Virus record (IMG/VR): IMGVR_UViG_3300022924_000016
Span: 1-64,000 of that record
DNA length: 64,000 bases
Origin: a virus
Strand: one strand, 5' to 3'
Part shown: in pieces, positions 2,503-44,614 of the stretch
How positions within the stretch are numbered: the first letter of the stretch is position 1
How the letters are laid out: the number at the start of each line of letters is the position of its first letter
Made by a program: the position numbers and the translations under genes
Notes under the pieces: model-generated
Seen by the model: only the letters and a program-made list of their open reading frames with translations
What the model was told of the DNA's origin: nothing
Databases searched by the model: none

Positions 2503-2871
2503 TTAATTATTCTTTTTACGGCGATTTTTAAATAAGTTGTAGATAATAACAGGGATTCCACAAAATAAAGCTATCAATCCCATTTCTATTAAGCCTCTTC
2601 TTGCTAATTGGTAGTGGGGGATATAGAAGTCTGAACCTTTAGCTCGTCTTGCAAAGTTCCCTCCGCAGAAACCATTTTCTATTCTTTTTACCAAGAAAGC
2701 TTCCTCTGCCAAACTTTCAGTCAAAGGATTAGTTCCTAAAAAGATATTTCTTGAAGAATACTCAGGAAATTGGTACACATCAAAACCTAAAATTGGGAAC
2801 ATATAAACTTCTCCAACTTTTATATCTCTCCTTAAGAACCACTGTTTTTGACTATCTGTGAATAATTTCAT
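2503..2871 (-). CDS. hypothetical protein with C-terminal TM helix
   Basis: LIEMGLIALFCGIPVIIY followed by basic tail; promoter immediately upstream. Confidence 0.65.
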   Translation of the reverse strand: MKLFTDSQKQWFLRRDIKVGEVYMFPILGFDVYQFPEYSSRNIFLGTNPLTESLAEEAFLVKRIENGFCGGNFARRAKGSDFYIPHYQLARRGLIEMGLIALFCGIPVIIYNLFKNRRKKNN

Positions 2872-2888
2872 ATCTTATTTTGTTTCTA

Positions 2889-2896
2889 CAAATATA
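2889..2896 (-). promoter_or_regulatory. Bacteroidota sigma70-type -7 element (TATATTTG)
   Basis: Matches TAnnTTTG; intergenic, just downstream of a terminator. Confidence 0.65.
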
Positions 2897-2933
2897 CTAA
2901 TGTTTATCTGATATTAAAGTTAAGACTTAGTTA

Positions 2934-2961
2934 AAATAAAAAAGACAGCTATTATACTGTC
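2934..2961 (-). terminator. intrinsic terminator
   Basis: AGACAG-loop-CTGTCT then T-run on minus strand directly after ORF 2962-3156. Confidence 0.65.
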
Positions 2962-3156
2962 TCATTTTGATAATTTCGCCGATAAAAAGATTAGAAACAG
3001 TAGAATAACAACAGCTAAAACACTAAACAATCCTAAAACTAAAGGAATCCAAATAGGACTAAATACCCAAAGCCAAGTAATTTCAGTCCCTGTTAGTTTT
3101 AACAAAATAAATACGATGAACAAAGTCACAATAAATTCTAGGAACTTTCTTAACAT
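2962..3156 (-). CDS. small membrane protein
   Basis: ILLKLTG..TWLWVFSPIWIP motif typical of a phage TM protein family. Confidence 0.7.
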   Translation of the reverse strand: MLRKFLEFIVTLFIVFILLKLTGTEITWLWVFSPIWIPLVLGLFSVLAVVILLFLIFLSAKLSK

Positions 3157-3695
3157 CTTCTAAATAATTTAAGTTTCTTTTTTATACTCTTTTTCCCGCC
3201 CGAAATCTCTGAAATCCTTTCTTCACATTGCTCCCTCGAACCAAATACTTCTATCTTGCCTGTGAAAGGTTCAGTTAAAACTTCTGATAAGATATGAATT
3301 CCAAACCAATACTCATCTATCCTGATAAAATAATTCAAGCCTTGTTCTACTATTGTGTGTTTAGTCTTTTTCATACCAGTCCAATTAATAAACAGCTCAT
3401 CCCTATAAGGAACATGCCACAAAAACATCTACCCCAAATACCCTCCTCTGTATATTTATTCCAAGTCACTAAAACATAACCCCAATATAAAGCATTTAAA
3501 AGTATCAGTAAAATTATAATAAAGTCTTTCATTCTTCTATATGATTTCCAATTAATTTACAAACCCACACATTTTCCAATTCATACATCCCGCAAGTTAT
3601 AAAGGCATCGTTTTGTGTTTCAAACAGTTTTATCTCATCTTCGTCATTTCTAAAATAACCCATATCTCTTAGGTCTATGATTACATATTTATTTT

Positions 3696-4010
3696 TCATA
3701 CTTCCAAAGCTTTTAATATTACTGCTTCTAGAGCGTCTTCATAAGTACTATATTTACCGTTTTCTCCCGCCTCAGATAACTCAGGAATTTCCGCACACCT
3801 CTTTGCTGTTAAATCGTACCCTGAAAAGTTCCACTCCCTTAAAATGTTTATGTCTATAACAAAGTGAATACTGCAATACTCTCTAATAAACTTTTGGATA
3901 TAAGCCAGCTGTATAAACTTAGGAATGTCCCAAAACATTGCTGTGTAAGGAGCTAACTCTTGTTCTGCCAGCCACTTTTCAAATCCTAACTTAATTAATT
4001 TTTCTTTCAT
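3696..4010 (-). CDS. hypothetical phage protein
   Basis: C-terminal YSTYEDALEA motif common in Bacteroidota phage hypotheticals. Confidence 0.65.
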   Translation of the reverse strand: MKEKLIKLGFEKWLAEQELAPYTAMFWDIPKFIQLAYIQKFIREYCSIHFVIDINILREWNFSGYDLTAKRCAEIPELSEAGENGKYSTYEDALEAVILKALEV

Positions 4011-9121: not shown

Positions 9122-10514
9122 TAGATAGATGCGTTCTTACCTTCCTTTAAAAGGGTGTTTTTAACTGTAATTGCTTGTGATTTAGTTTCAGTTTTCATAA
9201 TTAAAATTGTTTTTGGTTACTGAAAAAACTGTTATTCCTTAACTTCGGGCGATAATTTTCTGTCAAGCCAAACACTAAACTAAATTCAGGACAGTCTTTA
9301 ACAATCTTTTTGACCGTTTCTTCTCGGTTCATGCCTTGCAAGATTACTAATTCGTTATCTCCTTTTAGAGTCCCACCGACTAATAAAGTTGCTATGCAAG
9401 AATTTCCTGCAAATATGCTGTATTTTGTTGCTGTGTAATTCATAATAAACTGTCTTTTAACTGTTTCTCTTTTAATTCTAATAGTCTCGCCAATTTTATA
9501 GCGGTTGTTTCTAGTTCTAAATCTATAAACTCAAATTCTTCTTTGCTGTCCTGTAAAAGATAAAACTCACAATCCGACTCTTCGGTGCCAAACGCCTCGC
9601 AATAGATAACCTTATCAAATAAGTCTGTCAAGGGCTTTTTAAATCTCTGCAATCTTTCCAAATTGTTTAGAGCTGATTTAAATTCTTGATTAGTTAGTTT
9701 CATCTTTTAAAGTCAGGTACTTCAATAATTAAGAACTCTTCTTTATTTTTGAAGAGTTGAGATGCTGTTTCATAAGCGTTTTCCGCCGTAGAAAAAACTA
9801 AAGATTTTCCTCCATAACCGTAAAGAGCTTTCTTTGTTTTTAAATCTACGATAAAATAATTTTTAATTTCTTTCATTTTCAAGAGGTTTTATTTTTGTTA
9901 AGTGATACAGAATACCAAAATTAGTTTTAAGTGTCTGTAATCTATTATAATTGGCTTTCTGAGAAGATTATGATCTCCAAGTCTTCTTTGGAATAGCATT
10001 CTTTTGTTTCTACTCTGTTTTCAATTTCTTCTTGTTTTAGTTTTTCGCCGAAAAGAAAACCTAAATAACAACCTAAATAAAAAACTGCTACGAAGCCTAA
10101 AACTGTCAATACATTTTTCATAACTAGTAAGTTTGTTTGTAGCCATCCTTAACTAGGAAAGCCAAAGTGTTAACAAATAATCTTTTCTTTTTAAACTGTC
10201 TTGTCTCTCCGTTATTTAGGTTAATGACGTAGCAGTCTTTATTCTTGCCGTGTGATGTTGTGTATGTTTTCATCTTATGAAGATTTAATCTCTTTTATTA
10301 ATATTTGCTTGATAACAGCTTGTTGGTGGCAATATTCCTTGAAATTATTGCAAAGCTGTTGTAACTCTTTTATTGAGTGTTCGCCATCGCCTTTATAGTA
10401 AGGCATTTCTATCGGAGTATATTGTTCGGGTAATAAAAAGCTGTCTGATTTTATATTCATCCCTAGTTGTGGAAAATCTTTTAGTTTCATAATTTTTCGA
10501 AATAAGTGTTAAAC

Positions 10515-10706
10515 TTAAATAATTCTAATATAGCTTTCATCTAATAGTAACTCCTGATAGTTGACAGCAATTTGAAAACCTTGTAAACTATAAACTGTAC
10601 CTTGTGATTCTGCTTCTGTCATAAATTCTTCATCTGTAAACTCTCTAGCATCCACATCTTCTTTTAGAAAATTTATGTCAACTATATACACTCTTAATTC
10701 TTTCAT
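10515..10706 (-). CDS. small acidic phage protein
   Basis: DEEFMTEAESQGTVYSLQGF motif typical of Bacteroidota phage proteins. Confidence 0.65.
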   Translation of the reverse strand: MKELRVYIVDINFLKEDVDAREFTDEEFMTEAESQGTVYSLQGFQIAVNYQELLLDESYIRII

Positions 10707-10972
10707 AATCTTATCTTTTTATGGCGTAACTTGCGCCGATTGCTAATTCTTTTAAAATTCTCTTTATTGCTTTCATTATTTTCGCGGGATAAAAATTAAG
10801 AAGAAAGTAAAATAGCTTTCAACTGTTTTAAAATATCTAAAGTATTATTATATCTCAATACTTCATTTTTATAAGTCTCAGATAAAGTATTTGAATCTTC
10901 TAATAACTTACTACGTTCCTGGTTTTCCTTCTCTAATTTCAAGATAAGGTTTCTAAGCTGTTCTTTCATAAC

Positions 10973-11374
10973 TTAGATAAATTTGATTACTTCAACACAC
11001 TTCTTTTTTCTGTCTGTGGGGTGGTTTTTTATCAAGTGTACTGTATTATTATGCATTTCAAAAATATTCCCCGAATCAATTAAAAAAGCTCTATACTCAG
11101 AGTAACCAAATTCATCCTCTGAATTATACTTTTTATTATGAATTCTCAAGAAACCCCTTCCGCTCATGAAATCCTTATCAATATCAAAACTATTAAAGAT
11201 ACTAACCTGACTTCTCTCAATCTTATTAGCTTTTAGTCCTAAGCCTTTGAGAAGTTGGTTTTCTTTTTTAGATGTTGGATAAAAAGTCTGACTTTGCAGA
11301 ATTTTATCTTTCCCAATTTTATTTAGTACCCCTCTTATTTGGGATAAATTAGATGCGTTTACAACTGCTTTCAT
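10973..11374 (-). CDS. hypothetical protein
   Basis: 133-aa ORF with -7 element at 11397-11404. Confidence 0.65.
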   Translation of the reverse strand: MKAVVNASNLSQIRGVLNKIGKDKILQSQTFYPTSKKENQLLKGLGLKANKIERSQVSIFNSFDIDKDFMSGRGFLRIHNKKYNSEDEFGYSEYRAFLIDSGNIFEMHNNTVHLIKNHPTDRKKKCVEVIKFI

Positions 11375-11396
11375 AGTTTTTATGTTTTTAGTTTGG

Positions 11397-11404
11397 CAAA
11401 ATTA
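11397..11404 (-). promoter_or_regulatory. -7 element (TAATTTTG)
   Basis: TAnnTTTG consensus, intergenic. Confidence 0.55.
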
Positions 11405-12215
11405 TTAACTATTTGCCGAAGTTTAACTCTTTATACTGATCTCTTAATCTGTCAATCGGTTTCATAATTTTAAATTCTTTTTGTTATTTAAAAAGACAGG
11501 CTACTATTATTACAGATAAAGCTGTTGTTTAAAGCTCTATTCTGTGGCTTCAGCTGTCTTATATTTTTGCGCGAAAAGGACTAAACAGAAAATTGACAAA
11601 TTCTATCATCACTCAAAAGATTATCATAATAGTAGACTGTTATCATAGTTCTACCAACTTCTACTTTATTAACCACATAACGAGGTTTCAAAAATCCATC
11701 GTTTAGAGCTATTTCAATTACTTCTTTAATGTTTGTCATAACTTTATTATTTTAGTGCCTTAAAACGGCTGTTAGTAGTCTTAATTTAAGTTTTTGGCTA
11801 ATGCTTGTGAATAAATCGGCGGGAAAAAGAGTTAAACAACAATAACATTCGTATAATCAAAAGAACAGTTTCTATCATAGAGTAAAGAAGCCAAATCTTT
11901 AAAGGTAATATAAACAAAACTGTCAGAACCTTCCTTAAATCTAGTATAGCTGTCTAATACCAGTTCAAATTCATAATCCGTATAGCTATCATAATCCGAA
12001 AACTTACAACAGCCCTTATTAATAAGCTCCAAGACTTTTTCTTTTGGTATTTTTATTGTGTCCATATATTACAAGTTTTTAAATGTGTTTATTGGGTATT
12101 TATGTCCTTTTTATACAACCCTATGTATACTTTTACTAATTTAATATATCTATATCGTGCTAACTTGGTATAGGTTTGATTTTTAAATTTTTTGCGGTTT
12201 TGGTGGTTGGTTGGT

Positions 12216-12237
12216 GGGGTTTAGGGGGTTGGGTGGG
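12216..12237 (+). other. G-quadruplex-forming motif
   Basis: GGGG TTTA GGGGG TT GGG T GGG in a non-coding gap of an AT-rich genome. Confidence 0.6.
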
Positions 12238-12295
12238 TTTCTCCTCCACTCTTACTTTGTATTTCAAAGTACTTTTATACAATTAAAGAAGCCTT

Positions 12296-12523
12296 TTAAC
12301 TCGTTAAATCCGACAAATTGTCTTTTATGTCATTACCTCTATCCTTATTGGGGATTGTTTTGGCTTTTGCAAATACAAATCCGTTGTAAATCTTCTCTGT
12401 GAAGGTGTGTTTTGCATTACGTTGCATAGTCTTTTCGCTTATTCCTATCATATTTGACAGTTTTGATGCTCCTTTAGAGTAGAATAGTTCTTTTGTTTGT
12501 ACGTTTTGCACGATGTAATTCAT
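12296..12523 (-). CDS. small HTH-like DNA-binding protein
   Basis: GASKLSNMIGISEKTMQR resembles an HTH (NUMOD1-like); own -7 element at 12555-12562. Confidence 0.5.
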   Translation of the reverse strand: MNYIVQNVQTKELFYSKGASKLSNMIGISEKTMQRNAKHTFTEKIYNGFVFAKAKTIPNKDRGNDIKDNLSDLTS

Positions 12524-13216
12524 AATTATAGTCTTTTTTATTCGTTAGATACGACAAAAGTACTAAATCTATTTGATTCTACCTAATTAAAGTTAATTCT
12601 TTAAGACTCTTTTAATTCTCTGTAGTGTTACGAGGGTATCTAGTGGTGTATTAATCTTTGTTATTTCTATACTACCTTTTACTACTTCCAATGCTTCTTT
12701 TAAAACTGTTTCTAACTCTTCTTCGCGGAAAATACTCTTTTGCAGTTCTGTATGTAGCCTGTCTCTTTCAAATCGTACCGTATCTACTTGATTCTGTAAT
12801 ATGCTTACTATTGATGTTGTATTGTTCATAGCTGTTTTTATTTACTTTGTTTAGTTTTCTTTTTGCGCCCAATTATAAAACTCTAAAACTGCCTCTTTGA
12901 AATCTTCTTCGTCCATTAGGTAGGCATAATGTCCTTCACTTAAGGCTGTATTGTTTGAATACTTTTTGAATAGTTCAGCTATTAGAGTGTTAGCCTTATT
13001 ATTGTTTTCTGTTGTGTTCATGATTTTTTACTGTTTTTATTTTCTCCCCTGAAAATAGATAAACTTTTTTACATGGTAATAAGTTTTACAAATCTCTTTT
13101 GCTTCTTTTAGTGTGTCAGCTGTTATTACTTCTATCGTAACTTCTCCCTCTGAACCTATAAATGTTAATTCGTAATCGTTCATACTGTTTTTGTTTTAAG
13201 GTTTTTCTTCCGCCGA

Positions 13217-13534
13217 TTACAAATCCCAAAATCTTTGGCTATTTTCTGTCACCTGTCTGTTCCTTCTTATTGCTTCGGTCAAATCTTTATTAACATTTAT
13301 CTCGCTAAATAGAACTCTTATGGTGTCACCCATATAAAGGACATTTATAAACTCATGCTCTCTTTTACCTGAATATAAACTATCTATATCCTCTTTATAG
13401 GGTTCTGAAACTATTAGCACTTCTTTCGGATCATCTCCTAACATATTACCTGCCAGACAATAATCTTCTAGCCCTGTTAAATTCTTAGCATAGCTATTGT
13501 CGTTAGGAACGTATTTTTTATTTAAGTAACTCAT
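13217..13534 (-). CDS. hypothetical protein
   Basis: 105-aa ORF. Confidence 0.65.
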   Translation of the reverse strand: MSYLNKKYVPNDNSYAKNLTGLEDYCLAGNMLGDDPKEVLIVSEPYKEDIDSLYSGKREHEFINVLYMGDTIRVLFSEINVNKDLTEAIRRNRQVTENSQRFWDL

Positions 13535-13750
13535 AGCCTTTATATTTTAGGGCAGTTATCCCAATTGATTAAATATTTGTTACAGTTTATTGTGATTGTT
13601 TTTAAGCCTTTTCTTGGCTGTCTTAATCTTGAATCACATATGAGTTTTACCTTTCCTTCTAACTTAAATACTGTTGTTACATAGTTAGAACTGTTTCTTG
13701 TTCTTGATGCTGTTAATGTTTTTCATTTTTTAATTCTTTTTTCGCGCGAT

Positions 13751-14116
13751 TTAAAGATTATCTTTTAAAGTGAAAAACGCTTCGGCTAAATTGTTCCAAT
13801 AGTCTTGGCAGAATTGTTCTTCGTCTTTTATTTTTATGCCCGCGTCTTGAGCATTCTCAATGATTTCATTGTAATAAAATGGCACGCTTAAAACACTTGG
13901 CAAACCTTTCAACCACTCCGCAAAAACCTCTTTCAACGGCTGATTACAGTTATTAGCGTGGACGTATTCCGACTTAAAAATATTGAAGCAAGTTTTGATC
14001 TTATCATAAAGATAACATTCATTTGAATAGCCGTAAACATCAAAGTCAATATTATCAATGATTGTTTTTTCAAAGTGAGTATAAACTGAAGTTTGCATAA
14101 TATTATATTTTATCAA
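13751..14116 (-). CDS. early phage protein (FAEWLKGLPS motif)
   Basis: Motif recurrent in phage early-region hypotheticals. Confidence 0.65.
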   Translation of the reverse strand: MIKYNIMQTSVYTHFEKTIIDNIDFDVYGYSNECYLYDKIKTCFNIFKSEYVHANNCNQPLKEVFAEWLKGLPSVLSVPFYYNEIIENAQDAGIKIKDEEQFCQDYWNNLAEAFFTLKDNL

Positions 14117-14286
14117 TTAACATTTCTAAAGTGTTTAAAACTGCAATAAGAGCTAGGATTATTAAAGCTATTATTGATATGATTTCTCTGTTTAGCCAAA
14201 ACCAATTGTTACGTATTTTTTTGGCAAAGCCTTTATAGATTGTTTTCATTTTTAAACTGTTTTTAAATTCTTTTCTCCCGCGAAAT

Positions 14287-14580
14287 TTACAACCAATATA
14301 AAGTTGTTTCTAATGAATCAGTAATGCACCACTCATTAGCATAGTCTTCACTAATCAAACCATCCTTTTGGTAGCGATCTACTTTGTTGTTATACGCTTC
14401 ACGCCTTGCTGGTCTGTCTGGTACTCCATCACGTTCGTATTGTTTTGCTATTTCGTGTAAATCGTTTAGCTTAAATTCCTGGTCAAATTGTTGCTTTGTC
14501 ATGATATTAGATTTTAGGTTGTTTCTTTGCCTCTGAATACTCTTTAAAAAATTTAACTCCAAAATATTGCAAGTTTTCAT
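14287..14580 (-). CDS. early phage protein (DRPARREAYNN..D...KDGLI); true start possibly the internal Met (MTKQQF)
   Basis: Motif recurrent in phage early hypotheticals. Confidence 0.6.
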   Translation of the reverse strand: MKTCNILELNFLKSIQRQRNNLKSNIMTKQQFDQEFKLNDLHEIAKQYERDGVPDRPARREAYNNKVDRYQKDGLISEDYANEWCITDSLETTLYWL

Positions 14581-14655
14581 CTTTGCTTAATTTGTCGTAA
14601 CTTCCTGAATAAACTTTGTTATCAACTGGACTTTTATAATAAACTAGCATAGCTT

Positions 14656-14928
14656 TTACTTTTTAAATTTATATTCTCTTACGGTTTTACTTTGTTTGTC
14701 GGGCGAAGTTGAAACAAGCTTAACCACAACATAACCCGCATAAGTATAGGCACGTGTAACAGTTTCAGAACCTCCTAAACGTCTGAACCACTTAACGGTG
14801 TCTTCATTTGTAGTTAATCGGTGTTGCTCTTCTGTTACCTCTTCAACTTCTTTGCTTATTTCTTTGTAGGCGTTTTTTGTGCCTGCTTTTTTCTCTAACT
14901 TTGTTTTAGTTTCTATGATTGTGTACAT
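14656..14928 (-). CDS. early phage protein (WFRRLGGSET motif)
   Basis: 90-aa ORF. Confidence 0.65.
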   Translation of the reverse strand: MYTIIETKTKLEKKAGTKNAYKEISKEVEEVTEEQHRLTTNEDTVKWFRRLGGSETVTRAYTYAGYVVVKLVSTSPDKQSKTVREYKFKK

Positions 14929-14932
14929 AATA

Positions 14933-15259
14933 CTATTTTTTTGTAATTAATTTAATAGCTTTTTTAATTGCAGTTTCTATGTGGGAATCATTGCATCCGT
15001 CTGGATAGCTTTTAAAATCGTAATCGAAATTTAAAATATTTTCGCCTGGATTTTCTACTAACTCGCCATCAACTAAGGAAAATTTTCTTTTTAAAATTCC
15101 TTCAGAAATTACTAAACGATTATGTTTTTGTCCTTCTGAAAATTCATTATAAACCATACTATGTAAACGCAAAACGCCTACAGAATCAAGGTCAAAATAT
15201 TTATGAAAAATAGTTAATACTTTAACTAATACTTCAAATTGGTTAACTGGATATTTCAT
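14933..15259 (-). CDS. early phage protein, first sizeable ORF after the promoter cluster
   Basis: 108-aa ORF, C-terminal NDSHIETAIKK. Confidence 0.65.
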   Translation of the reverse strand: MKYPVNQFEVLVKVLTIFHKYFDLDSVGVLRLHSMVYNEFSEGQKHNRLVISEGILKRKFSLVDGELVENPGENILNFDYDFKSYPDGCNDSHIETAIKKAIKLITKK

Positions 15260-15649
15260 AATAATAAGTTTTAAATTGTTTAGTGCCGTTTGCTAATTGA
15301 ATAGCCACAACTATATTGAACGGCTTTTTGTTTTTCTTTTCCCGCATTTCGCCAACAAAAAAGAATTAATAATATATAAAAAATCCCTACTAAATAGGGC
15401 GTGATAATTTTCGATAAATTTAATAATAGTTTTTAATTAGAACCTTAACTAACTATGACTTTTCTCGCACCCTGCAATCGCTCGGCTAAATTAATAGTGA
15501 GTTTTATATGGTACTTTCATAGCTCCCAATTTCCGCAAAAAAGATAAAACAACCGTTTATATCATCTTAATCACTTATTGTTAAAACCCAGGCAAAGTCT
15601 TAGAGAGTTGGTTTAAAGCCTGTCAGTATTTCAAAGGACTGTAATATAA

Positions 15650-16075
15650 TTCTTTTGTAAAGGTAAGCAACTTAAATCTAATAACCTAATTTATTTTGTT
15701 AAATTTTTCGGGCGAAAAAAGAAACTAAACAAAGGATAAAAAGAACTGCTTAACTAATACATTACAAAGATAAGGAAGTTAATTGAATAAACAATAACTA
15801 AAAGTGTTAAAGTTTATAATTAATTTCAATACCTCAAAAAGAACTTTGTTGACTAACAACATTACAAAGGTCAGCATAAAATAATTAAAATAAAAATAGG
15901 ATATGAATTATTATTTTTGTATTACGTGCGGGCGCGATCATATTATTAGAAAAGCATTTGATTTGATTTGTTATTTATTAAATCCTGAGCAAAAAGAAAA
16001 CTAAAAACAGGAGCAACAACTGCTAATAACATAACTAAATAAGAGTAGTAAAACAGTAGCACAAAAGTAACTAAG
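15650..16075 (-). promoter_or_regulatory. cluster of tandem leftward (early) promoters in a ~1-kb non-coding region
   Basis: -7-like elements at 15658-65 (TACCTTTA), 15765-72 (TATCTTTG), 15865-72 (GACCTTTG) and 16062-69 (TACTTTTG); imperfect repeat AAGAACT..ACTAA..CATTACAAAG at ~15741 and ~15839. Confidence 0.6.
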
Positions 16076-16238
16076 ATAGTAACCAAGGCAAGCACTTTTT
16101 TCCAGGTTCAAACTTTTTGGCTTCTAAGGCTCGAAAATAGTTTTGAGATAGCAAGGTAGGGAGTACCAAACAAACAGCCCGTCTTGAACCAGTGGAACCC
16201 TAAGGTGGACAGGTGCAATACCACTCTCAATAAATTTT

Positions 16239-17330
16239 TTATATTAGATACTTGTCTACATCTTCCTGCTCAAATATCCAAGTCTTATTTTTTATTATTG
16301 AGTCTATTATGCTTTCACTTACTTCACAAATTTCAGAGAGTTCTGCTATTGTGTGTTTACTTATATTATCCCTTATAAAAGTTGCTTTGTCAAAGTCAGC
16401 TTTTGTATGTCTATTCATTTTACAGTTCATACTTAAGGGAATCCATCTACAATTTTCTGGATTGTATCCTTGGTCGTTATCTCTTCTGTCAATGGATAGA
16501 TGTTCTTTATATCCGTTCTTTAGAGCCCACTTATAAAACTCTTGTGAGTCGTCTAACCACTCTTTATAAATATCTATACCTCTAGATCCGTAATTTTTAT
16601 AATCCTTGCAGTTTTGATTATAACATCTATTCTTCATGGCATGGAAAATTCTTTTGAGCCTTGAGTTTTTTATATTATTATTTTTCTTTTTACCCGCGGA
16701 TTTAGCACAACAGCTCGAATAGAATTCCGCATTTTCTATGGAATAAGTCTTTACTCCTCTACAAATCCTACATAATAAGTCTATAGAATTATTTTTATAA
16801 TCTATATGTTTTATTAGTTTCTTCGCCCCGTTTTTAAGGTAATGCCAATTTCTCTCTTTAATGGGCTTTCTACATCTTTCTTTAGTACAACTACAAGCCT
16901 CTTGCCTAACTGTCGTTATAGTTCTATTGTATGTTTTAGAACAGCTTACACACTCAATTTCAAAAATTCTATGAGATGCTTGTTCATAGTCCTCATTTAA
17001 AATTTTAAATCCATTAATTATACTTCCAATCTCTATTGGTTCTGGCTTCCTCACTTTGTATCCGTCAGGTTTGTAAACCCAAAGTAAATTATCCGCCTTT
17101 ACATTCATATTATTACCATCCTTATATCCCACATAACTGAAATTTTCAGGGTTAGGTATAAATAATCTAGCAACTGTAATTGCAACTAGGAGTTTAGTTT
17201 CTTTACCATCGAAACTAAGTTTAACTACCCTTTGTTTATTCATCTTAAGAATGTTTCCCGTCTTCTTGTTTTTTACCTCTCCATTTTCATTTACTTCAAA
17301 CTGTGGGTATTTTTCTATTGTCTTAAACAT
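16239..17330 (-). CDS. HNH-family homing endonuclease-like protein (two nuclease-like domains)
   Basis: N-terminal NUMOD4/HNH-like (FEVNENGEVKN...VARLFIPNP...KDGNNMN..ADNL); C-terminal MKNRCYN..YKNYGSRGI...SIDRRDND..Y.PENCRW. Confidence 0.8.
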   Translation of the reverse strand: MFKTIEKYPQFEVNENGEVKNKKTGNILKMNKQRVVKLSFDGKETKLLVAITVARLFIPNPENFSYVGYKDGNNMNVKADNLLWVYKPDGYKVRKPEPIEIGSIINGFKILNEDYEQASHRIFEIECVSCSKTYNRTITTVRQEACSCTKERCRKPIKERNWHYLKNGAKKLIKHIDYKNNSIDLLCRICRGVKTYSIENAEFYSSCCAKSAGKKKNNNIKNSRLKRIFHAMKNRCYNQNCKDYKNYGSRGIDIYKEWLDDSQEFYKWALKNGYKEHLSIDRRDNDQGYNPENCRWIPLSMNCKMNRHTKADFDKATFIRDNISKHTIAELSEICEVSESIIDSIIKNKTWIFEQEDVDKYLI

Positions 17331-17399
17331 ATTTCTGTTTGGTTTTTATTTTTCGGCAATTCTCAATAAATTTTTGTATCCTCTCAAAAGAACCATCTT

Positions 17400-17714
17400 C
17401 TAATAATTATATTCTAACCAATAGTCAGGGTTCTCCTGTAATATTTTAAGTAGTCTTTCAACGTAAGCTCTATCCCCTCCATTCAGAGTTTCAGTCCACT
17501 TAAAAGCTTTTTTATCAAAGTTCAGAGGCCTGTAATACTCTTCCCAATCTAATTCTTTACCACTACTTAAGGTTTCTAATTCTATATTTCTAGAGATTTC
17601 ATATCTTATGCTATACCTTGTAGAATCCCAATCTTCTATTTCTGGTGATACAGTATTTAGATAGCCGTTGTCTTTTATTCCTATGTGTTTTATTATGTTT
17701 AAATCTAATCCCAT
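17400..17714 (-). CDS. hypothetical protein
   Basis: 104-aa ORF starting MGLD. Confidence 0.6.
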   Translation of the reverse strand: MGLDLNIIKHIGIKDNGYLNTVSPEIEDWDSTRYSIRYEISRNIELETLSSGKELDWEEYYRPLNFDKKAFKWTETLNGGDRAYVERLLKILQENPDYWLEYNY

Positions 17715-18538
17715 TTTTAATTTTCTTTTTTCGGCGGTTTTATTATACTCTCTATGAGTTTTTATGTACTCACAACTTATTTAAACCCTTTTCTCAAACT
17801 ATTGATAGCAATATACCACTTGTAAAATTATCGTCTCTCTAATCAGTTAAAATCAAATGTCTTCTTTTTCTATTATATTCTCTATACTTATCAGACATAT
17901 AGTTTTCTACTCTTATAATGTAATCGAAGTGTACTAACCACATAGAATCTTCTTCTAAGTTTAATACGTGTGCCATTTGCGCATCTCCATCAATTAAGCT
18001 TACCTTGCATACATCTACTGTTCTATTCTTATATATCCAAATAATTGAATTTTCTTGTATTTGGTTTTCTACTGTTGGTATTACTTTATTATCTTTTTGT
18101 TCTAGTTGTTCCATTTTTAGTTTTCTTTTTGCGTGATTAATTCGGGAGCCTCTTCTCGCCATGCCGTAAAGCAATTAGCATCGTCGTTCTCTGCTTTTTC
18201 AAATCCCTTGTAAAAACATTTTTTACCAAAGGCTATTAAATCTTCTTTTTGTATAGTTTTTCATTTGTTTTATTTTTTATCCGCCAATTTTTAAAATTAA
18301 AGATATTTTACAGTCCTTACTATGTCATTGACAACATCTCCAAAGCATATTACTGTTGGTTGTGAGTATCTTTGTTCTAATGTTTTAAACTCAGGAGTTT
18401 CTTTCAACCCTTCTCTTACCATTTTAGCCATATCCTGTAATCCTTGAGTATGTTGTTTTTGCAAGTCATTTAATTTTGACAATTCTTTGCAATGGGTTAT
18501 CAGTTTTTGTATTACGTCTTGTTTATTCATTTTTATTT

Positions 18539-18883
18539 TTAAATTAATTCTTTCCCCGCCAAACTAAAATATAGATTCTGAAGTTGGTGTACGTACTCGC
18601 AGTTTAAGCTAAAAGAGTGGTCTGCGATATTTATAACCTCTCTTAATTCCGCTTTGCCTTCTATACTTAAAACTAGATAACAATATTCTTGAATTTGAAT
18701 TGAAAAATTTCCATAAGTGTCATCTCTAAATCCGTTGTTAATAAGAAACTCTTTTGTTAGGGGAATTCCTTGATATTCAGAAGCTATGTTTTTATTTATC
18801 CTAGTAGTACTTAGTCTACTTACTGTTTCTGTCCAGCCGTTTCTTAGTAGTAGGTTGCCTAGTCTTAATTCTTTTATTTTCAT
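18539..18883 (-). CDS. YopX-like/Bacteroidota phage conserved protein
   Basis: ELRLGN...IPLTKEFL..NGF...YVHQLQNLYFSL.G.EL signature. Confidence 0.65.
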   Translation of the reverse strand: MKIKELRLGNLLLRNGWTETVSRLSTTRINKNIASEYQGIPLTKEFLINNGFRDDTYGNFSIQIQEYCYLVLSIEGKAELREVINIADHSFSLNCEYVHQLQNLYFSLAGKELI

Positions 18884-18898
18884 CTTTTTTCCGCGATT

Positions 18899-19288
18899 TT
18901 AATATTTATCTAAAGTTTGTTTTAAGTACTTCCAGATTTTAGGGGCTTTATTAGGCAAATCAGCCAGTCCTACACCAATTTGAGGTATAACTAAAGCTCT
19001 GTATTTCTCGCTTTTTAGAGCCAAATCTACTTTTTCAATATCACTGTTAAATTCTAATAACCAACTGTCAAAATCTGAGTCCTTGTAAAAACTGCTATAT
19101 TGATTGCTAGGGTATTTCTTTGAGAGTATTCCTATGGCATTTTCTTCCCCTCTCATTTCTTTAGCCTGCCCGCCTAGTCCTTTTCTTAAAAGATTATCGC
19201 CAAATAAATAAAGTACATCTAGATTTTGTTTTAACTTCTCCCTCTTTATTATTTTTTCAGTTCTATAAACTGTTATATTGTTTTTCAT
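18899..19288 (-). CDS. macro-domain-like protein
   Basis: YLFGDN..R.G.GGQA...NAIGI and P.IGVGLA (macrodomain-type GxGxA loop). Confidence 0.55.
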   Translation of the reverse strand: MKNNITVYRTEKIIKREKLKQNLDVLYLFGDNLLRKGLGGQAKEMRGEENAIGILSKKYPSNQYSSFYKDSDFDSWLLEFNSDIEKVDLALKSEKYRALVIPQIGVGLADLPNKAPKIWKYLKQTLDKY

Positions 19289-19289
19289 T

Positions 19290-19616
19290 TTAAAAACTTA
19301 TTCTTAAAGCTCTAAACCAATTCAATAATTTTAGATATTTCTTTTCAAAACTGTACCCCCAATTACCCGTGAACAAGAAATTAATAGGAAGTAGGAGAAA
19401 CATCAAAATCATAGTCAATATAGCAAAAGGTAATGTCAATCTAGTCCAAAAACTTACAGGCACTTTCTCTTCAGAATAGAAATCCATTTTCATAGCTATA
19501 AACCTGTCACATAGTTCTTCACTGCTTACTTTATTTAATTCTGGAAACAACTCCTTGAATCTTGGGATGTAATTTAGGTCGCTATGAGACCATGTTCTTT
19601 TAAGTTTTCTGTACAT
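19290..19616 (-). CDS. membrane protein
   Basis: RLTLPFAILTMILMFLLLPINF TM segment. Confidence 0.65.
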   Translation of the reverse strand: MYRKLKRTWSHSDLNYIPRFKELFPELNKVSSEELCDRFIAMKMDFYSEEKVPVSFWTRLTLPFAILTMILMFLLLPINFLFTGNWGYSFEKKYLKLLNWFRALRISF

Positions 19617-27547: not shown

Positions 27548-28000
27548 CTAATTTGTTTTCTTCCATTTTATTTCTTTTACCCAATCTGTTAATTTTTGAT
27601 ACCAAGGTCTTGAAATCATGTGAATCATATAGTAAATCATCTCAGGGGTTTCTTCAATTTCATAAATATCTCCTGATTTGGTTGTCAATATGCTTGAAAT
27701 CATTGAAGTTTCCACACAAGACTGAAATTCTTCTAAGTCTATAATTAAATCATTGAATTCATATTCAACCTCATCTTCTGGAAGTAGCATATAACCATTT
27801 TCGTCGATTTCTTCTGTTTCATCTTCCTCTAAATCAGAGGGAGGTGTGATATTCATAGACTTAAACCAAGCAGATGTCCCAGGCTTTGCAAAATCTTCAT
27901 CCCCATCAGAATTTCTATTTTTCTTGACGGCTTTTTGAATTCTTTTTTGACCTTCTTCTGTCGGTATGGTTGTTACTGCGGTTAAAAAAAGTAATTTCAT
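27548..28000 (-). CDS. acidic hypothetical protein
   Basis: 150-aa ORF with D/E-rich centre. Confidence 0.65.
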   Translation of the reverse strand: MKLLFLTAVTTIPTEEGQKRIQKAVKKNRNSDGDEDFAKPGTSAWFKSMNITPPSDLEEDETEEIDENGYMLLPEDEVEYEFNDLIIDLEEFQSCVETSMISSILTTKSGDIYEIEETPEMIYYMIHMISRPWYQKLTDWVKEIKWKKTN

Positions 28001-31741: not shown

Positions 31742-31942
31742 TTATGTAAAGTTTCCATATTCAATTCTGTTTAGTTCTTTTCTAACTGTTTCTATCCCTT
31801 CTTGGGTTCTAATTAAATCTGAAGGTTTTGCATTTAGATATTTATTTTCTTCTTCCAGCCATTTTTTAAATTTTTCTGATTCATTATTAAAAACTTCTAA
31901 GCCATATTCAAGCAGTTCATAATTTTCCAAACATTGTTTCAT
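31742..31942 (-). CDS. stand-alone Xre/MbcA/ParS antitoxin toxin-binding domain (DUF2384-like)
   Basis: GLEVF....KF.KWL...N..L...P.DL..T.EG...V..EL.RIEYG.F matches the domain pattern over its full length. Confidence 0.8.
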   Translation of the reverse strand: MKQCLENYELLEYGLEVFNNESEKFKKWLEEENKYLNAKPSDLIRTQEGIETVRKELNRIEYGNFT

Positions 31943-32222
31943 ATTCTTCTTTTGGGTATATTTTAAAACTTAAATCGTTTATTTTATATTCTTTTTCGCC
32001 GAATAATGGTATACTTGTATTGGCAACAGAATTTATAAAATCAAATGTTTCTTGTGATAATTCAAGAGTAGTAAACTGTTTTAAGTTGTTTGATTGCTTG
32101 TCGAAATTTATAGGTATAAACTTTAGCTTACTTAATTCTTTTTTAAGTTCCTCTACGTTAAATTTTTCTGGTTCAATATAAACCTCTCTATCTAACACTT
32201 CTGTTATTGCTATGTATTTCAT

Positions 32223-34684: not shown

Positions 34685-35369
34685 TATTTTGTTTTTTATT
34701 ATCTCTTATTATTTTTCTATAATGGTATCTGCAATAACCTTTAGGGAAGTAAATGTGACCTAATCTATGCTTTTCTCCCTCTTTTTCGCACTTACTTATT
34801 TTGCAACATTTTGGCTTCTCTTCGTCGGATTTTCTTTCTGGCACACATCCGTATACTTCATATGTGTAGAGAGCTTTATCATAAAGTCTTGCTACTTCTT
34901 CCTCATATTCTGAATACCCTAAGTAATAGGAAACTTTATTTATATGTATAGTTCCTCCCCATACGTTATCTCTTAACTTATGTACCCCTACATATTTAGA
35001 TGTATTATTTTTATTTGGACTTTCAAAGCTTACATTTTCTCTGACAGTGCAATATCTTAGATTTTCTAATCTATTGTCTTTTATATTACTATTAATATGA
35101 TCTACTACTAATTCAGAACATCCTTTGAAAGCCATCATAACTAATCTGTGAACTCTGAATGTAAACTTTTTTCCATTTTTAGCTAAATTCAACTTTAAAT
35201 AGCCGTCTTTACCCTCAACATGCGATATTATAGTTCCTTTTATATCTTTACTTCTACCTAGAGAATTTATTATAACCCTATCTAATCCTCGGATTCTACC
35301 TAAATCCGAAGCTTGATAATAACCTTCAAAATTAGGAATATCTTTCCAAATTTCATTCGTATCTGTCAT
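34650..35369 (-). CDS. NUMOD4-HNH homing endonuclease with AP2-like domain
   Basis: EIWKDIPNFEGYYQASDLGRIR; VHRLV..AF..VDHIN...DNRLENL; SKYVGV...YLG. Confidence 0.9.
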   Translation of the reverse strand: MTDTNEIWKDIPNFEGYYQASDLGRIRGLDRVIINSLGRSKDIKGTIISHVEGKDGYLKLNLAKNGKKFTFRVHRLVMMAFKGCSELVVDHINSNIKDNRLENLRYCTVRENVSFESPNKNNTSKYVGVHKLRDNVWGGTIHINKVSYYLGYSEYEEEVARLYDKALYTYEVYGCVPERKSDEEKPKCCKISKCEKEGEKHRLGHIYFPKGYCRYHYRKIIRDNKKQNNDIRGNIKEIK

Positions 35370-35733
35370 ATACTTTATAATTAATTTTTTCTGTAATATT
35401 TTGTTCTAACTGTTTGAATACTTCTTGTACTTTTGGATAAATATTCATTTGTTTTACTTTTTCTGCGGGAAAATTGTCATAATTTGAGTGACAGTTATTT
35501 TTAGAAAAAATTCCACACAAATAAAGAATGTTACTATCTTCGGTTGCTACCGACTTAAAATATGACTTAGGTAAAACGTGTGCTATCTCAGATGCATTTC
35601 CTTTTAGTTTTTCCCCGCATTCTTCGCAATATTTTGTTTTTGCAATTCCTATGTGCTTTTGGAAAAATTCTGGAAAGTCTTTTCGTTCTTCTTTTCTTTT
35701 TTCTAATCCTTTTTTACTATATTTTCTAATCAC
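35353..35733 (-). CDS. small Zn-binding HNH endonuclease
   Basis: CEECG...AHVLPK...NILYLC...CH..YD. Confidence 0.75.
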   Translation of the reverse strand: MIRKYSKKGLEKRKEERKDFPEFFQKHIGIAKTKYCEECGEKLKGNASEIAHVLPKSYFKSVATEDSNILYLCGIFSKNNCHSNYDNFPAEKVKQMNIYPKVQEVFKQLEQNITEKINYKVYDRYE

Positions 35734-41109: not shown

Positions 41110-41113
41110 TATA

Positions 41114-41542: not shown

Positions 41543-41669
41543 GAAAGGGGATAATGTCTTGATTTTTTCTAAGAACGAGCATCCCAAAATAAAATTTAAA
41601 GATATCGACGGACTTTGGATAAGAAACTCTGATTTGGAAGTCGTAGGAAGGGTGGAAGAGAATGAGTAG
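41427..41669 (+). CDS. GroES-like co-chaperonin
   Basis: 80 aa; PGKKLIV...VQVLFAG....KKGDNVLI...IKF....LWIR..D..VVG parallels the Cpn10 pattern. Confidence 0.55.
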   Translation: MNLTFPGKKLIVSNISSEPLGGTSSTVQVLFAGEDSFYKKGDNVLIFSKNEHPKIKFKDIDGLWIRNSDLEVVGRVEENE

Positions 41670-42039: not shown

Positions 42040-42424
42040 GGTAAAAGACCCTCTGATAACAGAAGAGATGATTATCCAAAATTACCTGCAAAGAGGAAAT
42101 AAAAAGGATGAAAGGGCGGTGAGAGAAGTGTGGCGGGTCTTAAAGGAGTTCATAAAACAGTCGGGAAAGACTCATACCAAAATAAAAATAGGGAACAGGC
42201 TAGAAATATTCTCCGATTTATATCTGAAAGCTGAAACAAAAGAGTATGAGGGAGAACAGCTTCAATACCTGATGAACAGTTTATACTGCGACAAGCCAAG
42301 AAAGTATGATGAGAACTACCTAATGAATTCAAAGTACCGAGAAAATAACATAGAAGAAATAGTAGAAGATGTGGAAAACTTTTTTAAGAATCCTCCTTTC
42401 AAGAATAAGAAAACAAAAGAGTAA
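42032..42424 (+). CDS. hypothetical, possibly IHF/HU-like
   Basis: Helix-helix-strand pattern (EVW..L.EFIK....IKIG); crAss-like head modules carry IHF-like genes. Confidence 0.35.
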   Translation: MFKVKDPLITEEMIIQNYLQRGNKKDERAVREVWRVLKEFIKQSGKTHTKIKIGNRLEIFSDLYLKAETKEYEGEQLQYLMNSLYCDKPRKYDENYLMNSKYRENNIEEIVEDVENFFKNPPFKNKKTKE

Positions 42425-42677
42425 CAGGAAAATCTCAGAGAGAATAGAAGAATGCCTCAACTGCCCCAAGAACAGCTTGAACATGAAAGAAAGTGAAATA
42501 CCAAAAAGCAAAAAACTTTTAATAAGACTTTCAAACTTCTATTCTCTGATTACAGGACAAAAACACAAAGACAAATTTGGCAATTGCACAGCTTGTCATT
42601 CTTGCTCGGTATATTATAAAGCAAGAGAAGGAGAATGGGAAAATTGCCCCGAAAACAAATGGAAACAATGGAAATAG
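42369..42677 (+). CDS. Cys-rich Zn-binding protein
   Basis: R.EECLNCP...CTACHSC...CPENKW. Confidence 0.65.
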   Translation: MWKTFLRILLSRIRKQKSNRKISERIEECLNCPKNSLNMKESEIPKSKKLLIRLSNFYSLITGQKHKDKFGNCTACHSCSVYYKAREGEWENCPENKWKQWK

Positions 42678-42976
42678 AACTAATAAACAAAGAAATAGCC
42701 GAATTTACAAAAGACGGTAAAAACCATATTTTAAATTATGGTTATAGGCAAAGGAACAGTGATTTAAAAACCGACCTCAAAATAGAAACTAAAGAAATAA
42801 TCAGCATAGTAGCTACCTGTCCTTGCACAAAGATAACAAAGAACAAGACAGATTACGGATATGATGTTACTTTGGAGTATGATTCAAAAAGGCTGAATGC
42901 TTTTTCAAAAGTTTTGAAGGTAGTCGCGGATAAAAAAGTAATAGCAGAAATAACACTAAGAGGAACAATTTTATAA
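42635..42976 (+). CDS. Ig-like protein (DUF1573-like)
   Basis: ATCPCT motif and beta-strand pattern ending ITLRG. Confidence 0.5.
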   Translation: MGKLPRKQMETMEIELINKEIAEFTKDGKNHILNYGYRQRNSDLKTDLKIETKEIISIVATCPCTKITKNKTDYGYDVTLEYDSKRLNAFSKVLKVVADKKVIAEITLRGTIL

Positions 42977-43299
42977 TGGATAAAATAGGAATTGTAGATA
43001 AAATATTAATGTTGTATCAGCAAAGAGACAATTTCAGGTTAAGACATGAGTATGAAAATGAAGATTCTAATTTTAGAGAAAGTTATGTCGGTATAACGAA
43101 TGATGAAGATTTCTATAGTTGGAGAAAATCTCAAAAAATAAAAACAGAAAGGTTTTATGAAGACAGTCTTATATACGCCCATAATGAATTAGATAACCTT
43201 GTAATAGAAGAAACCTTAATAGAAAATATAAGTTTGAAGCATTTGAAAGAGTTAAAAGACAATTTACTAAATACCTACAAGAAAATTAATAAATTATAA
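42976..43299 (+). CDS. hypothetical protein
   Basis: 107-aa ORF, translationally coupled. Confidence 0.6.
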   Translation: MDKIGIVDKILMLYQQRDNFRLRHEYENEDSNFRESYVGITNDEDFYSWRKSQKIKTERFYEDSLIYAHNELDNLVIEETLIENISLKHLKELKDNLLNTYKKINKL

Positions 43300-43763
43300 T
43301 GGGAGTAACAAAGGAAGATATTGAAGAATTATATCAAGATGCCAAGAAATTAGATATGATAATTGAGGACAAAACAAAGTTAGATGAATTTTTAAATATA
43401 TCTGAAAAAGAGAGAATTACAAGTAAAATATACAATTTAGAACAGGAAAAGAATTTGTTATTAGCAAAGTCATTTTTAATAATGGCTACAACTTGTGAAG
43501 CAATAGGTGTATACAAAGAAGAAGTTTGTCTTTATGGAGATAATATGGAGTTATTAGCTAGAGCCTCTATTAAAAACTATAAGGTTGAGGGCACAATTAA
43601 TAAAGTCCGTAGTTATAAAATAGGAGATGGTTATTTTTTTAAAATTTTAGATGAAAAATTAATTCAAGAGTTTGAGAATACTTTTATACACAAAGCAAAA
43701 TTAGACCAAGAACAAAAATTACTAGAAGAGGTAAAAGAACTGTATAACAAAATAAAAAAATAA
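43299..43763 (+). CDS. hypothetical protein
   Basis: 154-aa ORF, translationally coupled. Confidence 0.6.
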   Translation: MGVTKEDIEELYQDAKKLDMIIEDKTKLDEFLNISEKERITSKIYNLEQEKNLLLAKSFLIMATTCEAIGVYKEEVCLYGDNMELLARASIKNYKVEGTINKVRSYKIGDGYFFKILDEKLIQEFENTFIHKAKLDQEQKLLEEVKELYNKIKK

Positions 43764-44023
43764 TGGAAGAAACAAATTTCAAAGGAAACCTGCATACAGT
43801 TCTAGGAGATATATTTACAAAGTATCCCGAAGTACCCACAGCTCACGTATTATATTCAATCTTGCACAAAAGCAATTTCAAAGGCAGTCATTTTTTTGAT
43901 ATGAATGATGAAAGACTTTATGCTTCGGCGGAAAAATTTCTAAAATATGGAGATTTAGAAGATGAACAATATACGGACGAAGAATGGGAACAATGGAGAG
44001 CAAGTAAATTTCAAGGGGTATGA
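43763..44023 (+). CDS. hypothetical protein
   Basis: 86-aa ORF. Confidence 0.6.
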   Translation: MEETNFKGNLHTVLGDIFTKYPEVPTAHVLYSILHKSNFKGSHFFDMNDERLYASAEKFLKYGDLEDEQYTDEEWEQWRASKFQGV

Positions 44024-44194
44024 TAAATAAACTTGACATTAATAGTAAAAATAGCCAAATAAAAGAAATCTACAATAACGAGGGGTTTGAAATGTTAAAT
44101 TATATTGAAGAAGGATTAAAAAACACGCATGATACGGAATTTGATGATGCAATAAAGTATATCTATGAATTAAGAAATAAGTATTCAAAATAAT

Positions 44195-44614
44195 ATGACG
44201 GAACAATTAAAAAATAAATTTGAAGAAAAATACAAGTCTTGGAAAGCCTATACAAACTACATTGAATCAAACCAAGAACAGTTAAAAGAAAAACAGAAAG
44301 ACTTCTCTAAAAGAGTTGTAAACATCACCACAAAGGAACAGATGGAAGAACTCTTCAAACTTCAAGGAGAGCCAGGAAAACATCTTTCAGACCATACAAA
44401 TCTCTCAAATGACTTAGTTTTGCTTTATAGTTTGTTCACAGATAAGTCAGAATTCCCGCAAGAAGTAAAAGACGACATGGAAAAGCTAGGAACAAGAAAA
44501 TTATACTATATCGTAACAGACGGAAAGCTTGTCAAGATAAATGAAGAAATCCATGAAATCGCAAAAGAGCATTTCTACCAAACAATGCAAAACGTTTTGA
44601 CACTTGGAAAATAG
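44195..44614 (+). CDS. helical protein upstream of TerL
   Basis: 139-aa ORF overlapping the TerL TTG start. Confidence 0.65.
   Translation: MTEQLKNKFEEKYKSWKAYTNYIESNQEQLKEKQKDFSKRVVNITTKEQMEELFKLQGEPGKHLSDHTNLSNDLVLLYSLFTDKSEFPQEVKDDMEKLGTRKLYYIVTDGKLVKINEEIHEIAKEHFYQTMQNVLTLGK

Follow-up and report, generated by a model that had tools for sequence, protein, structure and literature searches.

An asymmetric DNA element repeated at small-gene junctions in a family of large phages

Introduction

Repeated intergenic control sequences are a known class in phages. To this class appears to belong the element considered here, an asymmetric stretch of DNA in which a T-run, a CG-rich core, and an A-run follow one another at the junctions between small genes, and which, to judge from its sequence, would share the function of the class. 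It lies in a window of 64,000 nt, positions 1–64,000 of the virus record IMGVR_UViG_3300022924_000016 (G000 below); "the window" refers throughout to that whole stretch. The record is one phage contig of 141,323 bp, and its source is a metagenome of leaf litter. Among the sequencing runs listed as containing positions 9500–19400 there are only two, both DNA runs of leaf-litter metagenomes and one of them the likely source, and no RNA run.

The described systems nearest to this element differ widely in architecture. The MotA box of phage T4, at −30, is a factor site that replaces or overlaps the upstream promoter element of many genes and is fixed in its orientation and in its spacing to the −10 element. 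The KorB operators of IncP plasmids (TTTAGCSGCTAAA) have the layout of a T-run, a GC-containing core, and an A-run, while the N4-type promoter for virion RNA polymerase is an extrudable hairpin of 5–7 bp with a 3-nt loop, served by an injected RNA polymerase. In cluster A mycobacteriophages, the stoperators, sites for repressors of the L5 gp71 type, are 13–14 bp long, fixed in length, tied to the direction of transcription, and bound by the known immunity repressor of a temperate phage (PMC9283540, PMC6550527). T4-type phages have PeSL cassettes, in which an early promoter for host sigma-70 is paired with a stem-loop terminator; insertions and deletions end at these cassettes (PMC2839356, PMC4122927). 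The halovirus HF2 has virus-specific intergenic repeats of 29–58 bp with AT-rich motifs before genes, for which reporter assays showed promoter activity (PMC8707807). Among crAss-like phages, phi14:2 was found to have no common motif upstream of its early transcripts, and its middle and late promoters were of host type (bioRxiv 10.1101/2020.03.07.982082). A limited search of the literature found no description of the junction element itself.

The Junction Element and Its Distribution

With a junction defined as non-coding DNA plus 20 nt of each adjoining gene end, on crude gene calls, the copies at junctions are a real, lineage-specific, asymmetric DNA element. It extends over ~25–40 bp, and copies aligned on the core give the consensus cTGTTTTTA(A)TTC-T5-[4–8 nt CG-rich core]-A4-TTAAA. 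The core is varied, from 4 to 8 nt, with CGCCG and CGGCG the commonest forms, and the T-run, core, and A-run together span 11–18 nt. A first-pass annotation of the window had proposed a short quasi-palindrome, about TTTCSSCGAAA; the element is longer than this and asymmetric, with a core of no fixed length. At 35 of 50 junction sites, a C precedes the T-run and a T follows the A-run, or the reverse complement of this arrangement is found. A true palindrome was rejected on this asymmetry, on the rarity of two strong arms at one site (0–6 sites per genome), and on the scarcity of palindromic cores (3/50). A hairpin or cruciform was likewise rejected, as no stable fold is seen: at 52 junction sites, RNAfold gives a mean z-score of +0.2 relative to dinucleotide shuffles.

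Enrichment at junctions is pronounced. In the 11.2 kb of junction DNA in the window, T3-core-A3 occurs 4 times versus 0.26 in dinucleotide shuffles, a count reached by 0 of 300 shuffles. The corresponding junction counts are 7 versus 0.48 for the whole genome of G000 and, for the relatives G001 and G003, 9 versus 0.50 and 14 versus 0.33, so that junction copies are 15–40 times commoner than in the shuffles. The mirror form, A3-core-T3, is found at junctions 0 times.

Seven relatives were compared with G000: six designated G001–G006, of which G005 is IMGVR_UViG_3300000970_000007, and Cellulophaga phage phi4:1 (NC_021788). Portal identity to G000 is 92% in G001, 33–42% in G002–G004, and 26–31% in G005, G006, and phi4:1; only 113 of 246 proteins are common to G000 and G001, its closest relative. 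Sites of the form T4-core-A2 number 16–36 in each of G000–G004, against 2–4 of the mirror form, and 0–1 in G005, G006, and phi4:1. The same extended consensus recurs in genomes whose portals are only 33–42% identical, beside non-homologous genes. Further element-bearing IMG/VR contigs, found by arm patterns, carry about 1 element per kb and share proteins with G000. In all, the extended consensus is common to at least 10 contigs of a family of Bacteroidota phages with genomes of ~130–145 kb, and each genome has ~20–45 copies between small genes of accessory or early type. G+C content is 26.7–32.7% in the motif-less relatives and 29.7–32.9% in the motif-bearing genomes. The genome of phi4:1, from which the motif is absent, has a CpG observed/expected ratio of 0.34; the ratio is also low in G005 and G006, at 0.40–0.42, the motif-bearing lineage being the one that tolerates CG. 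Junctions in the motif-less G005 are enriched in other words, ACCACCT and CCACCTA, whose reverse complement AGGTGGT resembles a Shine-Dalgarno sequence, unusual for phages of Bacteroidota.

Independent detection was provided by R1, a sequence-only profile trained on 44 sites from G002–G004 and four IMG/VR contigs, with G000 and G001 left out. R1 gives 42 matches at E ≤ 1 in G000, 20 of them non-overlapping at E < 0.05. In G001 it gives 19 sites at E < 0.05. The three motif-less relatives, 397 kb in total, yield 4 matches at E ≤ 1 and none at E < 0.01. Junctions make up 13–14% of the genome and contain 55% of the R1 sites at E < 0.05 in G000 and 63% in G001. In G000, these sites cluster at ~3–20 kb and 105–139 kb, both of them small-gene regions. 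An element of host genomes was rejected as a source, a 22-nt arm pattern yielding 28 scattered single matches in 596 Gb of bacterial genomes; the three that were inspected are without an A-run and unlike the element, and two seemingly fall in coding sequence.

Copies Inside Genes

The first-pass annotation had cited 14 strings as examples of a motif occurring both between and within genes, and all 14 are present where it placed them. By the crude gene calls they divide evenly, with seven at junctions (10781, 11564, 13741, 14271, 15704, 17727, and 18886) and seven inside open reading frames (ORFs), namely 10041, in an ORF of 58 amino acids (aa), 12722, 28191, 29461, 30779, 32305, and 43924. The scarcity of CpG that it noted is borne out (observed/expected 0.64); the presence of CG in the cores, which it also recorded, is unremarkable by itself because 72% of G/C runs of at least 4 nt contain CG versus 69% expected a priori. 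Its impression of a thinning in the structural genes is correct for junction elements only; the short form, a G/C core with CG between a T-run and an A-run, does not differ in density between the arms (25 copies in 41 kb versus 53 in 92.65 kb). Nor are the junction elements spread across the early and replication arm: they do not extend over the replication genes at 20–41 kb, 8 of 16 junction sites fall at 10–20 kb, and a second cluster lies beyond the window, at ~105–128 kb.

Within coding sequence, the comparison was made with a shuffle that preserves protein, codon usage, and dinucleotides. By this null, TT-S4–7(CG)-AA is observed 60 times versus 44.8 ± 4.9 (z 3.1) and TTT-core-AAA 10 times versus 8.2 ± 2.1 (z 0.85). 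The intragenic copies that can be aligned to G001 (n = 30) are 82.4% identical there versus 82.8% in their flanks, and individual copies, such as those at 28193, 32309, and 58597, are altered. The first-pass annotation had proposed a site acting genome-wide, inside ORFs as well, and had itself named an excess over a codon-preserving null and retention in relatives as what would decide the matter; the intragenic copies lie near that null and are retained in G001 no better than their surroundings. The look-alikes inside genes are ordinary coding sequence. As half of the first examples are of this kind, the idea of genome-wide shielding or compaction can be dropped; with sites confined to small-gene junctions, roles in DNA ejection, compaction, or protection from nucleases find no support.

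Placement, Promoters, and a Favored Interpretation

The primary-sigma promoter of Bacteroidota has the box TAnnTTTG ~7 nt upstream of the transcript start and TTTG ~19 nt further upstream. Many intergenic regions of G000 hold TAnnTTTG, from which its host is taken to be a member of Bacteroidota. This box is somewhat more frequent in gaps with the element than in gaps without it (odds ratio 1.9, p = 0.03); among co-directional gaps, a −7 box accompanies the element in 31 of 59, its distance from the element being variable. At eight junctions in G000–G004, amounting to about four promoter contexts, the element lies in the 5′ leader, 34–52 nt downstream of a TAnnTTTG −7 box (34–42 nt at six of them); at other junctions the core is 3–17 nt upstream of the −7 box. 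By R1, the T-arm is upstream of the core in gene direction at 14 junctions and downstream at 7, and a stricter two-run definition gives 24 sites reading with the genes versus 10 against. Where the site reads with the genes, the upstream stop codon is often in or just before the T-arm. Where it reads against them, the gene strand has core-AAAAAGAAT(T)AAAAACAG, often directly before ATG.

Several simple identities can be set aside. The element is not itself a Bacteroidota primary-sigma promoter (−33 TTTG/−7 TAnnTTTG), as the box is missing: no TTTG/TAnnTTTG host consensus lies within it, and the TTTG that a T-run followed by G produces in half of the sites is without the conserved A. An intrinsic terminator is ruled out by the reversed order of T-run, GC core, and A-run and by a core without palindrome or fold; at 9.5–19.8 kb, scans for sigma-70-like and terminator-like sequences gave matches at chance level, with no terminator-like match at any element. 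A leader peptide was considered for a 15-codon upstream ORF over the element at 113270 and rejected, the frame being shifted by a 1-nt insertion or deletion in G001. ATCTGTT resembles the class II termination signal of T7, a likeness judged coincidental because the CAT is mostly the start codon of the neighboring gene and no T7-like polymerase is present. As a separate observation, a promoter cassette TTTTATTAAGTTTTTCTTGCGGGAAT-N15-TATATTTG occurs three times in G004 (94912–95015, 99663–99729, and 109693–109820) and once in G003 (102206–102303), two of the G004 copies standing directly 3′ of an intrinsic terminator.

The element thus exists as a sequence enriched at junctions, conserved in its family, lacking secondary structure, present in both orientations, and adjoining host-type promoters. 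The interpretation favored here, with a probability of roughly one in three, is that it may be a double-stranded DNA recognition site for a candidate protein controlling transcription, whether as an operator, a "stoperator," or an activator site. Such a site is suggested by a motif that is unstructured, asymmetric yet present in both orientations, restricted to junctions, and situated in or next to promoter regions, and by its conservation across very divergent genomes beside unrelated genes; occurrence in both orientations despite the asymmetry fits recognition on DNA and not on RNA. The candidate protein, specific to the phage family or possibly of the host, would recognize the element on double-stranded DNA and, once bound, would modulate transcription by the host RNA polymerase at the starts of small-gene units. 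A protein-read site for transcription control is the part of the first-pass annotation that survives, as the leading possibility; the binders that it named and the genome-wide scope that it gave the site do not.

Several observations weigh against this interpretation. Foremost, the searches disclosed no binder. G000 has no HU/IHF (PF00216), ParB, or sigma-70 domain, and HTH_3 (PF01381) gave a single weak match, at 140306–140416 and not at 12296. The proteins found only in motif-bearing genomes are for the most part HNH endonucleases, a GroEL-like protein, and small unknowns; small ORFs with this distribution lie at 27548–28000, 117159–117404, 121547–121930, and 127637–127897. A core of 4–8 nt within a total T-run/core/A-run span of 11–18 nt is awkward for a rigid DNA-binding dimer. 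At the junction sites with both flanks aligned to G001 (n = 7, weak sites included), identity is 0.775 versus 0.869 in the flanks. Finally, the core lies 12–19 nt before ATG in 6 of the 14 sites that read with the genes, a placement equally suited to a promoter or leader element.

The candidates named earlier, a helix-turn-helix protein (12296), a winged helix-turn-helix protein (41662), and an IHF-like protein (42032), matched no DNA-binding family in the searches run. None of the three ORFs has a significant Pfam match; in PHROGs only 41662 matched, to a family of unknown function; and 42032, the only candidate searched against PDB sequences, gave no HU/IHF-like match. Profiling of five motif-bearing versus three motif-less genomes likewise gave no DNA-binding candidate, yielding the GroEL-like protein, HNH endonucleases, an SLT-domain protein, a BT4734-like protein, and small unknowns.

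A broader form of the recognition-site interpretation can be put forward only tentatively. In large Bacteroidota phages with crAss-like virion genes, the element may be the site of a global transcription factor or sigma-appropriation system. Such a factor would switch the host RNA polymerase, which reads TTTG/TAnnTTTG, onto or off dozens of small accessory genes.

Alternative Explanations

Among the alternatives, the one that survives best, and that is possible though not favored, makes the element a phage-specific promoter or a composite terminator-promoter cassette, by which each small gene would form its own transcription unit and a phage factor would redirect the host RNA polymerase. Its analogues would be the T4 middle promoters with their MotA boxes, the PeSL cassettes, and the HF2 repeats. 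That one element precedes many small genes where host-type promoters are sparse suits this explanation, as does the 2:1 bias at junctions toward a T-arm upstream of the gene, with the core often 12–19 nt before ATG and an A-rich leader next. So does the tandem arrangement with TAnnTTTG promoters, which recalls T4, where early and middle promoters stand in tandem. The intergenic repeats of HF2 offer a parallel, having been shown to carry promoters (PMC8707807). Against this stand the third of strong junction sites that are oriented opposite to the genes, so that the gene strand has no T-arm (for example 13724 and 14259 in G000 and 42648 in G001), the lack of a host TTTG/TAnnTTTG consensus inside the element, and the chance-level results of the sigma-70-like and terminator-like scans. 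The searches also turned up no sigma factor of the phage, and nothing in G000 was recognized as a phage RNA polymerase.

One protein bears on the last point. The catalytic motif of crAss-like virion RNA polymerases is DFDxD, and a virion protein of 2445 aa encoded at 70855–78192 of G000 has YDFDTD at residue 1702. It matches a virion structural PHROG and no PDB sequence, and PF25731 (crAss_MUZ, muzzle protein) is present in the ESM Atlas clusters nearest to it, a weak lead with a score of 0.90. The protein therefore looks muzzle-like, and no claim is made that it is a virion RNA polymerase.

It is unlikely that the element is instead a recombination linker or the boundary of a mobile cassette, at which related phages would exchange accessory genes by homologous recombination, as has been suggested of PeSLs, and which would need no part in regulation. 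Elements do occur in the most mosaic small-gene regions, where flanking genes are not shared between relatives; homology with G001 is one-sided at 14 of 47 sites; and HNH endonucleases of homing type are numerous, though only in motif-bearing genomes. A homology breakpoint is nonetheless found within 25 nt at 24% of sites versus 37% of gene boundaries in the same regions, and a linker leaves unexplained the asymmetric consensus, the arrangement of A-run and T-run, and the placement near promoters and start codons.

A signal at the level of mRNA, in leaders or between cistrons, that acts in translation start, processing, or stability is quite improbable. An example would be an A/U-rich landing site for ribosomal protein S1 with a GC clamp, in a host group without Shine-Dalgarno pairing. 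In most junction sites the core is ~7–46 nt from a start codon and is followed by an A-rich leader, A4 plus CAG stands just before ATG in 15% of leaders with the core versus 0% of those without, and several sites lie in leaders downstream of host-type promoters. The two orientations, however, would give unlike RNAs, U-rich or A-rich, that one RNA-binding factor could not both read; no stable fold is present; and the strong sites at 11559, 15528, and 15702 are hundreds of bases from any start codon.

The weakest explanation, a very improbable one for the element as a whole, is that of a compositional by-product without function, in which the T-rich antisense of Lys/Glu-rich genes, A-rich leaders, and Phe/Leu-rich signal peptides meet GC runs; it stands for the intragenic copies, which lie near the dicodon null, are retained as their flanks are, include the best match of the window (58588, intragenic and not conserved), and in some cases are signal peptides such as MKKLFLFLILFCAISC at 126051, and it is refuted for the junction elements by their 15–40-fold excess with the mirror form absent, by the extended consensus in at least 10 family contigs, and by near absence from three relatives of similar G+C. 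The ORF in question, a small one at 126051–126290 in G000 and 76678–76917 in G001, starts with MKKLFLFLILFCAISC, a lipoprotein-type signal peptide with a lipobox, whose T-rich codons mimic the T-arm and produce a false R1 match.

Elements in the Window and Genome Context

Genes of G000 run leftward from ~41 kb, rightward over 41.2–133.6 kb, and leftward again in the final 7.6 kb; G+C is 32%, and the genome is CpG-poor (observed/expected 0.62–0.64). The right arm opens with the terminase, portal, and major capsid genes, the capsid protein having 33% identity to those of Cellulophaga phages phi4:1 and phi17:2 and 31% to that of a crAss-like gut phage. The phage is probably lytic, as no integrase or repressor was noticed. 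Approximately the first 127 positions (1–127) are directly repeated at the contig end, 141184–141310, with divergence beyond. The class given in the record is linear, with no end repeats; the duplication resembles a terminal repeat or the overlap of a circular assembly, which makes the genome probably complete. HNH-type endonuclease genes lie at 16239–17330 in the window and at 99892–100650 and 124081–125187 of G000, and for two of these genes the relatives in this small sample are confined to genomes that bear the motif.

In what follows, E values are those of R1, arm scores come from a weight matrix, and the strand of each site is given in parentheses. The leftmost site, a weak element at 2967..2999 (−), lies at the 3′ end of ORF 2962–3156 and reads CTGTTTCTAATCTTTTTAT-CGGCG-AAATT (E 0.026). 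The TTTTCGGCGAAAAA element at 10036..10059 (−; E 0.017), cited earlier as 10041, is inside the doubtful 58-aa ORF, between genes 9700–9882 and 10275–10490; in G001 its T-run and core are kept and its A-run is not. The element cited as 10781, at 10773..10806 (−) in the gap 10707–10795, reads CTTAATTTTTAT-CCCGCG-AAAATAATG (E 0.12). That cited as 11564, at 11559..11592 (−), reads TTTCTGTTTAGTCC-TTTT-CGCGC-AAAAATAT (E 0.0041) and stands directly 3′ of the upstream stop codon. At 11805..11835 (−), in the gap 11740–11831, the junction element GTTGTTTAACTC-TTTTT-CCCGCCG-ATTT (arm score 14.3) has the upstream TAA stop inside its T-arm and is without an A-run, and was therefore missed by R1.

The next junction elements have the opposite strand. 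That at 12851..12879 (+) shows GGGCGC-AAAAAGAAAACTAAACAAAG...CAGCTATG on the gene (minus) strand (E 0.0053). The site at 13724..13757 (+), in the gap 13535–13750 and cited as 13741, has TAAAT-CGCGCG-AAAAAAGAATTAAAAAATG on the gene strand (E 0.0015); the site at 14259..14291 (+), cited as 14271, has TAAATTT-CGCGGG-AGAAAAGAATTTAAAAACAG-N7-ATG (E 0.0049) and is kept in G001. Within a non-coding region of 979 bp lies 15528..15549 (−), which reads GTTGTTTTATC-TTTTTT-GCGG-AAATT (E 0.0077). A two-armed element, cited as 15704, is found at 15694..15724, where no single strand is assigned, and reads TTTGTTTAGTTTC-TTTTTT-CGCCCG-AAAAATTTAACAAAATAAA (E 0.0031 on the minus strand and 0.016 on the plus strand); G001 has a 12-nt insertion here, yet the arrangement of T-run, core, and A-rich segment is retained.

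Three more junction elements follow. The one cited as 17727, at 17714..17740 (+) in the gap 17715–17838, has AAAA-CCGCCG-AAAAAAGAAAATTAAAAATG on the gene strand (E 0.3; arm score 9.8); that at 18265..18296 (+), in the gap 18163–18296, has AAATT-GGCGG-ATAAAAAATAAAACAAATG on the gene strand (arm scores 11.7 and 9.6). The one cited as 18886, at 18870..18900 (+) in a 15-nt gap between two genes, has TTAAAAT-CGCGG-AAAAAAGATG on the gene strand (arm score 13.6), and homology with G001 stops there.

Other matches in the window are of doubtful standing. An element-like sequence at 31978..32006 (+; E 0.00046), inside ORF 31917–32222 and 54 nt upstream of the start of gene 31742–31942, is fully kept in G001, and its function is doubtful. 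Another at 35452..35475 (+; E 0.0077) falls in the gap 35370–35527 of the crude gene calls and is also covered by the listed ORF 35353–35733(−), so that its junction status is uncertain. The best-scoring look-alike of the window, at 58588..58616 (−; E 2.4e-6), is inside ORF 58253–58747 in the structural arm; it is changed from TTTCGGCGAAAAA to TTTTGGCAGAAAA in G001 and is probably due to chance.

Comparison with Known Systems

Likenesses to the described systems are partial in every case. Like the PeSLs, the element is short, conserved among distant family members, and placed at junctions in hyperplastic regions where the small genes vary. Unlike them, it lacks both a stem-loop and the consensus of a host promoter, and homology breakpoints show no enrichment there (24% versus 37%). 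With the HF2 repeats it has in common the repetition of virus-specific intergenic sequences with AT-rich motifs ahead of genes, but HF2 is an archaeal system with TATA-like promoters and promoter activity shown by reporters, and a third of the junction-element sites read against the genes. The hairpin promoters of N4 type are not matched: stability is not above that of shuffles, no RNA polymerase was recognized, and a closing C–G pair is found in about half of the cores, as by chance (counted by eye). The KorB operator has the same layout of T-run, GC core, and A-run, and G000 differs in having no ParB/KorB-like domain. In the MotA box the spacing to −10 is fixed, whereas that of the junction element to the −7 box is 3–17 nt.

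The timing of gene expression in Bacteroidota phages is little known, and a conserved junction element offers a concrete handle on it. Its pattern of presence (at least 10 contigs) and absence (from sister lineages) can narrow the candidates for a factor. Where tiny ORFs crowd together, the element also shows which gene boundaries and start codons are real, and so aids annotation.

Of the systems compared, the stoperators resemble the element in being asymmetric short sites, in tens of copies, mostly in short intergenic gaps and separate from promoters. They differ in that stoperators are read by one protein, whereas no repressor-like gene was recognized in G000, and in that the core of the junction element varies in length and its orientation is mixed (14:7, or 24:10 by the stricter definition). 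If the element is indeed the site of a global factor, it would represent a Bacteroidota counterpart of the T4 MotA/AsiA or the L5 stoperator system, in which both the DNA site and the protein would be new.

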